Positions 10,914-27,762 of a DNA stretch of 64,000 bases are shown piece by piece. The position numbers and the translations under genes were made by a program. Below the pieces are notes generated by a model. That model saw only the letters and a list, made by a program, of their open reading frames with translations, ran no database searches and was not told the origin of the DNA. This stretch comes from Octopus vulgaris (taxonomy: Eukaryota), in the NCBI GenBank assembly GCA_951406725.2, contig OX597838.1, positions 8,680,001 through 8,744,000 on the forward strand, read 5' to 3'. Every line of letters starts with the position of its first letter. The stretch's first letter is position 1.

Positions 10914-10982
10914 GATGTGTGTACGTCATAATATCTATCGTAGCTGTTTGGTTAAGAAACGTTCTCCACAACCACAAGCAAG

Positions 10983-12500
10983 TCGTTCGTCTTAACGTCA
11001 TCGGTCTTTACGTTGTCCGCCTTTACGTTGTCCGTCGTTACGTCGTTCGTCTTTACGTCGTCCATCTTTACGTCGTCTGTCTTTACGTCGTCCATCTTTA
11101 CGTTGTTCATCTTTACGTCGTCCATCTTTACGTCGTCTTTCTTTACATCGTCTGTCTTTACGTCGTCCATCTTTACGTCGTTCGTCTTCACGTCGTCCAT
11201 CTTTACGCCGTCTGCCTTTACGTCGTCCATCTTTACGTCGTTCATCTTTACGTTGTCCGTTTTTACGTTGTCCATTTTTACGTTGGCCGTCTTTACGTTG
11301 TCCATCTTTACGTCGTCTATCTTTACGTCGGTCGTCTTTACGTCGTCCATCTTTACGTCGTTCGTCTTTACGTTGTCCGTCTTTACGTCGTCCATCTTTA
11401 CGTCGTCCGTCTTTACGTCGTCCGTCTTTACGTCGTCCGTCTTTACGTCGTTCGTCTTTACGTTGTCCGTCTTTACGTCGTCCATCTTTACGTCGTCTGT
11501 CTTTACGTCGTCCATCTTTACGTCGTTCGTCTTTACGTTGTCCGTCTTTACGTCGTCCATCTTTACGTCGTTCGTCTTTACGTTGTCCATCTTTACGTCG
11601 TCTATCTTTACGTCGTCCATCTTTACGTCGTTCGTCTTTACGTTGTCCGTCTGTACGTCGTCCATCTTTACGTCGTCTGTCTTTACGTCGTCCATCTTTA
11701 CGTCGTTCGTCTTTACGTTGTCCGTCTGTACGTCGTCCATCTTTACATCGTTCGTCTTTACGTTGTCCATCTTTACGTCGTCTATCTTTACGTCGTCCAT
11801 CTTTACGTCGTTCGTCTTTACGTTGTCCGTCTGTACGTCGTCCATCTTTACGTCGTCTGTCTTTACGTCGTCCATCTTTACGTCGTTCGTCTTTACGTTT
11901 TCCGTCTTTACGTCGTCCATCTTTACGTCGTATGTCTTTACGTCGTCCATCTTTACGTCGTTCGTCTTTACGTCGTCCATCTTTACGTCGTCTGTCTTTA
12001 CGTCGTCCATCTTTACGTCGTTCGTCTTTACGTCGTCCGTCTTTACGTTGTCCGTTTTTACGTTGTCCGTCTTTACGTTGTCCGTCTTTACGTTGTTCGT
12101 CTTTCGTCTGTCTTTACGTCGTCCATCTTTACGTCGTTCGTCTTTACGTTGCCCATCTTTACGTCGTTCGTCTTTACGTCGTCCGTCTTTACGTCGTCCG
12201 TCTTTACGTCGTCCGTCTTTACATTGCCCGTTTTTACGTCGTCGGACTTTACGTTGTCTGTCTTTACGCTGTCCCTCATTACGTCGTCTATCTTTACCTT
12301 GTCCGCCTTTACGTTGTCCGTCTTTACATTCTGAGTTAAAATTCCGCAGAGGTCGGCTTTACGTCGTCCATCTTTACGCTGTCTGTCTTTTCGTCGTCCG
12401 TTTTTACGTTGTCTGTCTTTACGTCGTCCGTCTTTACGTCGTCCGTCTTTACGCCGTCCGTCTTTACGCCGTCCGTCTTTAGGTTGTCCGTCTTTACGTT
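10983..12500. repeat. 15-bp minisatellite (CTTTACGTYGTYCRT)n, about 100 copies, SINE-derived
   Basis: Visible periodicity; runs into SINE-C sequence at about 12325 and 12495. Confidence 0.97.
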
Positions 12501-27178: not shown

Positions 27179-27226
27179 GTTGTCATGGTAACAAGCCGTT
27201 AATGCCTCGCTGTCTGTTGATTGGCT
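27179..27226. promoter_or_regulatory. RFX X-box-like palindrome plus CCAAT box
   Basis: GTTGTCATGGTAAC (27179-27192) and TGATTGGCT (27218-27226); motif match only. Confidence 0.35.
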
Positions 27227-27231
27227 AAAAA

Positions 27232-27290
27232 ACAGGACAAGGAGAAACCAACAATAAGGGCCCCTTATTGTTGGTTTCTCCTTGTCCTGT
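27232..27290. repeat. Perfect inverted repeat, 29-bp arms with 1-nt spacer
   Basis: ACAGGACAAGGAGAAACCAACAATAAGGG-C-CCCTTATTGTTGGTTTCTCCTTGTCCTGT. Confidence 0.97.
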
Positions 27291-27430
27291 CTTTTACTGT
27301 TTTTATCGTTATTTGTACTGTTTTTCCTTATTTTTATTGCTTTTACGTCCTGTTCTTGTCACCTTTTTTTACCCCACCGCAAAACTGTTTTATTTAATTC
27401 GCTTTGCGGGAAGGATTGTTTCAACGTAGT

Positions 27431-27493
27431 CGTGTTCTGCCCTTACCTTCGAAACACGCAATGAGTCGAAACAGGGGCAGCTGAAGAAGGGGT
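27431..27493 (+). ncRNA. Non-circularly permuted (rearranged) hammerhead ribozyme candidate
   Basis: CGTGT-T-CTGCCCTT / A-CCTTC-GAA-ACACG / 14-nt linker / AGGGGCAG-CTGAAGA-AGGGGT; intact core, stem I 8 bp, stem III 5 bp, stem II 4-5 bp with G-U. Confidence 0.7.
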
Positions 27494-27727
27494 ATGTCCC
27501 TTGTGTTGTTTGTCTTGTACTCTGTTCTTTCGTTGTTAAAAAAAGTCCGTTTCCTTGTTTCGTATTTATGTTTTCGTTTCTCGTTGTGTTCTACGTTTAT
27601 TTGAGGCGTCCTGTACCCATATATGCATGTATATATACATATAGATGTAGGTATGTACATATATGTATGTATGCATATGTTTTATTTATTAAATTGTTAT
27701 ATATATATGGATCTTTCCGTCTCCTAT

Positions 27728-27762
27728 GTTTCCGACGAAGAGGTCCGCTCGAAACGTTAAAC
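27728..27762 (+). ncRNA. Minimal type I hammerhead-like motif (core CCGACGA), family E (about 27710-27852)
   Basis: GTTT-CCGACGA-A-GAGG-TCC-GCTC-GAA-ACGT-T-AAAC. Confidence 0.6.

Follow-up and report, generated by a model that had tools for sequence, protein, structure and literature searches.

The window examined here, meaning the whole 64,000-nt stretch of octopus DNA, contains a repeat copy that likely encodes a hammerhead ribozyme of a non-circular form, built of four blocks in the order D-S-G-C, with its core opened, and cutting in the course of transposition. In this naming S is the cleavage site, G the GAAA block, C the CUGAnGA block and D an upstream 10.x strand. The alignments show, as predicted pairings, that stems I and III have undergone compensatory changes and are conserved, as is the core, and that the 11.x strand pairs with the upstream D. 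They also show that D runs into a further helix, P0, and that the partner strand of P0 runs straight into stem I. An initial annotation of the same DNA had reported a complete hammerhead at this site with its strands in a pseudoknotted order, stem II being made by a GGGG stretch directly after the core and a 14-nt linker lying between stems III and I.

Strands and chance level of the motif

The strands are given below with their positions in the window.

27410-27414, + strand: block D, the proposed 10.1-10.5 strand of stem II (GAAGG), apart from the core; five Watson-Crick pairs with 27446-50
27416-27425, + strand: 5' strand of helix P0, pairing with 27465-74; 6 of 9 pairs changed on both sides, 81.7% of cells paired (14 rows)
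27431-27435, + strand: stem III 5' strand CGTGT, ending in U16.1; 97.1% paired with double changes in 3 of 5 pairs in the F1 group, 94.2% paired in F6
27436, + strand: H17, with cleavage predicted 3' of U27436 by analogy with the hammerhead core; a truncation boundary lies just downstream
27437-27444, + strand: stem I strand as initially annotated, CTGCCCTT
27437-27442, + strand: stem I strand 1.1-1.6; 97.6% paired with double changes in 5 of 6 pairs (F1 group)
27443-27445, + strand: link of 3 nt from stem I to stem II, by sequence
27446-27454, + strand: block G, the stem II 11.x strand CCTTC (27446-50) and G12-A13-A14-A15.1, with GAA at 27451-53; C11.1 and GAAA invariant (alignments A1-A3)
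27454-27458, + strand: stem III 3' strand ACACG, paired and covarying in the F1 group and F6
27465-27474, + strand: 3' strand of helix P0, most of the 14-nt linker; compensatory in subfamily F1b (L093-L116)
27473-27480, + strand: second stem I strand as initially annotated, AGGGGCAG
27475-27480, + strand: stem I strand 2.6-2.1, covarying in the F1 group
27481-27487, + strand: core C3-A9, CUGAAGA (CTGAAGA in the DNA), with N7 the variable letter
27488-27502, + strand: post-core tail with AGGGG at 27488-92, forming a local hairpin of its own (-5.4 kcal/mol) and holding the initially annotated 10.x strand at 27489-92

All strands of the reported hammerhead were found at the positions first given for them, and the intact core words and the non-circular S-G-C order (A-C-B in the first lettering) were borne out as well. 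C3-A9 (CUGAnGA), G12-A15.1, U16.1 and H17 are all present, and the core columns are invariant in alignments that were partly selected by pattern. Stems I and III adjoin the core and covary, and the pair R10.1-Y11.1 is G-C in six of the six families that use strand D. Among six family representatives H17 is U, C or A, while N7 is A, T or G in family F1 and any of the four letters in F6. Stem I strand 1.1-1.6 could lengthen to 27444 where P0 is absent. Two variants in stem I, 27440 C>T and 27477 G>A, each occur frequently in contigs of four public sequencing runs; a lone contig joint at 27436 in the same contigs was set aside as a single record. A second GAAAC at 27468-72 was rejected as block G, since it requires H=G and clashes with stem I; it belongs to P0.

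How often would such a motif arise by chance? The descriptor required at least 4 bp in each of stems I and III around intact core words in the order S-G-C. On 100 dinucleotide-shuffled versions of the 64-kb window, with both strands searched, it gave 2 S-G-C matches and no complete four-helix match. The core word alone is little enriched, with 27 matches against 20.2 expected, and 4 of the 100 shuffles reach 27. Standard searches miss the motif, just as initially anticipated: Rfam gave no match at gathering score anywhere in the window, and around the site no hammerhead family was among 46 matches up to E=10. Unlike types I-III and the Rfam models, the block order in the window is no circular permutation of C-G-S.

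The host repeat and its families in the octopus genome

The copy that carries the motif is made of two pieces.

27262-27708, + strand: 5'-truncated copy of a non-autonomous repeat of ~690 bp, family F1; matches to other copies end at 27700-27711, and the 3' end is TA-rich
27226-27261, - strand: inverted 36-bp element piece at the 5' junction; 27226-27296 matches itself in reverse at 95.8%

The extent first proposed for the repeat was 27262-27618; the start holds, but by matches to other copies the end lies at about 27708. Full-length F1 copies are ~690 bp long with (TA)n on both sides (for example L022 and L036). The genome does hold further copies, with 2473 first-look candidates of which the best are 92-97% identical, and stems I and III are conserved with covariation among these copies and in related families. 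The D-S-G pattern has 745 exact genome matches versus none in the control, and the order G-then-C has 947 versus 171. Penelope-like structural traits were found, namely 5' truncation, partial tandems (an upstream partial copy at at least 9 of 30 F1 loci), inverted 5' copies and microsatellite targets. They match what PMC8557442 describes for Penelope-like elements, and from them we infer that the host is a non-autonomous, Penelope-like retroelement, TA-targeting and present in high copy number; the PLE-like context suggested at the outset is upheld. It does not look like a tRNA-derived SINE, as there is no tRNA-like head and 0 tRNA genes were found in 4 of 4 loci. The Naiad ORF (N-terminal GIY-YIG, CxC motif, C-terminal RT) is absent from the ~690-bp F1, and when RT pieces of Naiad and Penelope were compared by tblastn with 141 loci, none of the F1 copies had an RT in line with it.

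F1 subfamilies differ at N7 and at two mutually pairing segments, 27416-25 and 27465-74, which are the strands of P0. Further families in the genome are F1b, F2 (Naiad type), F3, F4, F5, F6 and F7, F4 and F5 being by-catch. A 23-letter word of the published octopus Naiad 3' end, which marks F2, has 192 genome matches versus 0 in the control; F2 follows Naiad-type RT fragments (L091; Pfam RVT_1 at E=1.3e-5, under the curated cut-off), and it has only ribozyme words in common with F1, with no alignable similarity elsewhere. F3 lies 156-170 nt past the end of an RT/zf-RVT ORF in two loci. In F7, a young RT/zf-RVT family without similarity to F1 or F6, the motif comes directly after the ORF. This young non-LTR family (L642-L644; C13:24875078, C1:75552037 and 75555774) has 142 exact matches to a 73-nt word and one open frame of 1099 aa; two copies are 3.7 kb apart, and its motif tail resembles that of Naiad_EuTe.

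Two candidates for the autonomous partner of F1 were rejected: F7, which has its own version of the motif, and elements with an RT of 753-782 aa and C-terminal GIY-YIG, which have no such motif. The latter (L172-L178) are apparently intact Penelope-like elements, some of them preceded by a second ORF of 320-380 aa, and the patterns found no hammerhead near most of them.

Some other repeats were noted on the way. Many F1 copies (L225, L230-L233, L242, L246, L252) have a constant tail of 30-50 bp after the TA-rich 3' end, which joins tandem copies and is absent from the window copy. A multi-kb tandem repeat, L193 (C2:44.92-44.97 Mb), has five G-then-C matches without hammerhead stems, and a 15-bp tandem array of about 101 copies occupies window positions 10982-12499. 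At 27728-27762 (+ strand) the window has a second hammerhead, an ordinary minimal type I of Penelope style, with a GTTT stem I, the core CCGACGA (U4 read as C in this copy), an extra A, a 3-bp stem II, a palindromic ACGT stem III and H17 at 27758. The 150-bp repeat around it is a different family, with ~90% copies in L068, L040 and L057.

Which strand forms stem II

The 11.x strand CCTTC has two possible partners, the GGGG after the core and the GAAGG at 27410-14. Which of them makes stem II? In the window copy the former is possible on paper but the weaker, with hairpin-proxy energies of +0.2 kcal/mol for GGGG:CTTC versus -4.4 kcal/mol for D:CCTTC. The F1 group (14 rows) fits the four-helix model, 17 of 25 pairs having double changes (0 of 500 shuffles), yet the GGGG stem is also 96.4% paired there, with double changes in 2 of 4 pairs, and so the F1 group alone cannot choose between the two versions. 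The double changes in either version of stem II come from one family, L094.

Six family representatives from the octopus genome were compared, with significance taken from 720 label permutations. D and 11.x make 30 of 30 Watson-Crick pairs, a score reached by 2 of the 720 permutations, and the pair 10.1-11.1 is always G-C; the post-core strand makes 9 of 30, which 522 permutations reach. Stem I is paired at 30 of 30 positions and stem III at 29 of 30 in the same sequences. Within F6, D and P0 were tallied by an anchored script in 24 of 32 rows, leaving out rows that are truncated or have indels in the motif (L184, both L197 copies, L208, L214, L215, L219 and L221). Here D:11.x has 99 of 120 Watson-Crick pairs, with row shuffles reaching 90 at most (0 of 5000 reach 99), and position 10.3 is G-C in 10 rows and C-G in 8. 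P0 is paired at 118 of 144 positions (4 of 5000 shuffles reach this), and stems I and III together at 91.3% (0 of 500 shuffles). The post-core strand pairs at 23 of 120 and 21 of 120 positions, and in none of the 24 rows does its first position pair with C11.1. Kinship of the copies inflates all of these shuffle tests.

An uninterrupted block C, with 10.x within 1-2 nt after CUGAnGA, failed in F3, F5, F6 and F7, while in the window family it is feasible though weak. A helix bridging the other sides of stems I and II is present only when the 10.x strand is D, and that helix is P0; most of what had been taken for a free 14-nt spacer is thus paired, and the motif has four blocks. Taken together, the pairing counts indicate that the stem II first assigned, with GGGG after the core, is probably wrong and that 11.x pairs instead with D at 27410-14.

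Note that the single-family cases are weak, because shuffling the 47 nt upstream 2000 times yields P0 together with a D helix as long as the one observed in 16 to 233 cases, depending on the family. Core conservation across families is partly built in, because the families were found with core-word patterns. MAFFT across unrelated families failed to align the blocks, and a leader:tail helix bridging the gap between A9 and G10.1 was significant in 1 of 7 families only. For the window copy, nested folding puts stem II, P0 and stem III at a probability near 0 and yields a competing hairpin in which G12-A13 is buried; pseudoknots are beyond the program, though the competing hairpin is nevertheless real. 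The MFE z-score of the copy is -0.5.

Truncated copies begin just past the predicted cut

If the RNA were cut at H17, would the genomic copies keep a trace of it? F1 copies were picked only by the sequence 74 nt downstream of the predicted cut, and the first 90 of 1147 in chromosome order were used. The 5' ends of 31 of the 90 fall at +1 to +30 and of 2 at -29 to 0 (p=1.3e-7, 31 versus 2); of the others, 6 fall at +31 to +60, 6 at -59 to -30, 42 farther upstream and 3 past +60. The lowest end in this interval is +5, and 13 of the 90 copies begin at +8 or +9. The initial F1 sample gave the same boundary (18 of 37 pieces). For F6, where the first 60 of 115 copies were used, 20 ends fall at +1 to +30 versus 5 at -29 to 0 (p=0.004), the earliest at +2; there are 2 at +31 to +53, 1 at -59 to -30 and 32 farther upstream.

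Stalling of the reverse transcriptase (RT) on structure could account for ends at +10 to +44. However, 16 ends in F1 and 8 in F6 lie at +2 to +9, past the last helix strand (+10) that RT has to melt. An RT on uncut RNA has melted all four helices by +10, and therefore the +2 to +9 ends agree better with a template ending near +1 than with a stall. In one subfamily the peak at +8/+9 lies at a TA that has no other within 40 nt, and microhomology with (TA)n inflates the peak; some ends are inversion junctions. The boundary just 3' of the predicted cut may thus be read as an indirect sign of cleavage.

The same form in other elements and species

Is the form confined to the octopus repeat? The Naiad consensi in File S5 of PMC8557442 were inspected by eye over their 3' ~330-400 nt and at core-word matches, without the Cmel 3' end; line breaks may conceal matches in this reading. 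Ten of the 54 consensi carry D, P0, III, I and core at their 3' ends in the same order and with different sequences. They come from a ctenophore (Bfor), cnidarians (Naiad-3_Chem, Amil, Aacu, Anas, Naiad-2_Movir), an acanthocephalan (Plae), a crustacean (EuTe) and octopuses (Obim, Ovul), and so span five phyla. In the eight that are not from cephalopods the post-core strand is unable to pair with C11.1, while the octopus consensi have the same ribozyme form and hold stem I and core words in common with the window family. Weak cases are Aacu with two mismatches, Bfor with a stem I of only 2 bp, and Esco with an imperfect D; Naiad_Esco probably also bears the D-S-G-C form.

Nematode Naiads (Nbra-1, -2, -3, Hcon, Hpol and Asuum), also read by eye, have the same P0 and a short S-G link with a contiguous core, which is type CSG. 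As these elements have the same P0, the strand cycle appears fixed, and the window form would be that cycle opened at A9/G10.1. At least six nematode consensi thus appear to be of a type published from only two sequences (PMC10085705). Spider and ostracod Naiads (Ptep, Smim, Dst-1 to -4) seem to have a further order, S, hairpin, G, C, with P0 around the core; Ptep is the clearest case, and its 10.x strand may lie between S and G. The bivalve, hemichordate and Naiad-1_Movir 3' ends, in the consensi as published, show no hammerhead core to the eye, yet they have recurring conserved words. Some of these words resemble what we take to be twister ribozyme motifs; if real, Naiads would need a ribozyme, of exchangeable class.

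A pattern scan gave at least 118 metagenome and at least 120 viral loci. All four helices are present in two of the 238 matches listed, the metagenome loci L473 and L505, versus 0 of 23800 shuffles; among the 120 viral matches listed, none has the full motif. Both metagenome motifs follow the end or a remnant of an ORF with RT and zf-RVT, which by its motifs we take to belong to a non-LTR element of the restriction-like-endonuclease group. As Naiad Penelope-like elements and RT/zf-RVT non-LTR elements both carry the motif, it would have moved between retrotransposon classes.

Proposed mechanism and alternative explanations

Since D, P0 and stem I are continuous, stems I, II and P0 would join in a three-way junction distal to the core. 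The architecture could be described as a circular permutation of the SGC/CSG cycle, P0'-2.x-core-10.x-P0-16.x-H-1.x-11.x-GAAA-15.x, opened within the core so that the chain would be open between A9 and G10.1. The distal junction might take the place of the loop-loop contact and keep G10.1-C11.1 beneath A9. In tandem or read-through transcripts the RNA would cut itself after U27436 and thereby give the transposition intermediate its 5' end, as PMC4209133 proposes for Penelope hammerheads; a reverse transcription primed at (TA)n targets would then often halt at or shortly before the cut end and leave copies that start just 3' of it. Both cleavage products might stay held by up to about 20 bp (II, P0 and III), which could permit religation or circles. 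We think it reasonably probable that such an open-core hammerhead is active as a monomer, with its ends leaving between A9 and G10.1, and that it is widespread in animals, setting RNA 5' ends in at least two unrelated retrotransposon classes and in five phyla.

What else could explain the pattern? The window family might fold as an ordinary type SGC hammerhead, with GGGG 27489-92 paired to CTTC after a bulged A, and D serving as an alternative, inhibitory or switch strand. Cleavage has been proven for this type (PMC10085705), Penelope hammerheads usually have a bulged A after A9 (PMC4209133), and the GGGG stem, well paired in the 14 F1-group rows, is kept in the diverged F4. We nevertheless hold it unlikely: two of its four pairs are G-U, its energy is unfavourable beside that of D, the post-core tail forms its own hairpin, and P0, which covaries, sits directly on D. 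Moreover, it is impossible in F5, F6, F3 and F7 and in eight Naiad consensi of the same geometry.

A different doubt concerns the cut itself, for the four helices might be conserved without any single-molecule cleavage, as an element that binds or stalls RT or that needs a protein or a second copy. The core would be open at A9/G10.1, a step for which the literature searched shows no tested precedent, nested folding disfavours the four-helix structure, and minimal Penelope hammerheads are weak as monomers (PMC4209133); in addition, 15 of the 31 F1 truncation ends lie at +11 to +26, within helix strands. Against this, every catalytic letter is kept, N7 and H17 vary as in active hammerheads, the stem III of 5 bp is non-palindromic so that no dimer is required, and two unrelated families have truncation ends that stop at the predicted cut. 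We judge this explanation quite improbable. Chance complementarity of purine and pyrimidine tracts, spread by copying of the repeat, is scarcely credible: local tracts do pair in several registers and the MFE z-score is unremarkable, but every one of the four helices shows compensatory changes between unrelated families and between phyla, and the excess of G-then-C matches over the control is large. The self-cleaving open-core hammerhead is thus the reading we prefer.

If it is true, a seventh topology joins the six so far held possible, and many Naiads can no longer be said to lack hammerheads, with their unexplained 'half cores' accounted for. Earlier non-circular forms come almost solely from anonymous meta-omic sequence, while here the form has high copy number in animal genomes, where standard descriptors would undercount hammerheads. 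The truncation boundary would be rare genomic evidence for the position of a cut during retrotransposition. The form also raises the structural question whether the core can function when the A9/G10.1 step is open. The same step is a possible new insertion point for ribozyme engineering.

Comparison with known systems

In the literature searched, which covered few subscription journals, neither a hammerhead whose 10.x strand is detached nor a non-circular hammerhead in a Naiad is described, and no such form appears in passages of a 2026 retrozyme preprint, PMC13725137 and PMC3088659 or in the text of the Eckert supplement. PMC13725137 does mention unnamed variants with 'additional helices or alternative permutations'. 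Eckert et al. 2023 (PMC10085705) derived six hammerhead orders from three unbreakable blocks, and A9-G10.1, within block C, was assumed uninterruptible. That the predicted D-S-G-C form falls outside this scheme is well supported.

The closest relative is type SGC, or HRIMA-1, of the same paper. It is like the window motif in its S, G, C order, its I-II link of ~3 nt (3 nt being typical for SGC), its extra helix between the other sides of stems I and II and its full core; in the window, however, 10.x and one strand of the extra helix lie 5', splitting block C (PMC10085705). The statement in the initial annotation that rearranged hammerheads had been reported in a few other eukaryotes is right insofar as S-G-C is a published type, but its sources are metatranscriptomes and not other eukaryotes. 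According to that paper, SGC/HRIMA-1 has not been found in genomes of known organisms, and its cleavage was shown there, whereas the window form is predicted from sequence. Type CSG, with two examples in the same paper, has the same strand cycle and extra helix; it opens the cycle between 15.x and P0', and the window form opens it within the core.

Craig et al. 2021 (PMC8557442) described Naiads as without canonical hammerheads and marked some, octopus included, 'HHR_core' or 'HHR_half_core'. The window family resembles Naiads in (TA)n targets, 5' truncation, partial tandems, inverted 5' pieces and a short tail, but it has no ORF and no alignable similarity outside the ribozyme. The Penelope hammerheads of Cervera and de la Pena 2014 (PMC4209133) are likewise near the 3' end or in a pseudo-LTR, have an unpaired nucleotide after A9, and were proposed to cut precursor RNA. 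They are circular type I, often dimer-dependent and with a palindromic stem III, whereas the window form has a non-palindromic stem III of 5 bp and four crossing helices. Natural hammerheads tolerate an extra nucleotide between A9 and G10.1 (PMC3705267, PMC4209133). The CChMVd hammerhead with its extra A10 is the case in point, as there an excursion of the chain is tolerated at the A9-G10.1 step; in CChMVd it is one inserted nucleotide in a continuous chain, while in the window form it would be an open end (PMC3705267).
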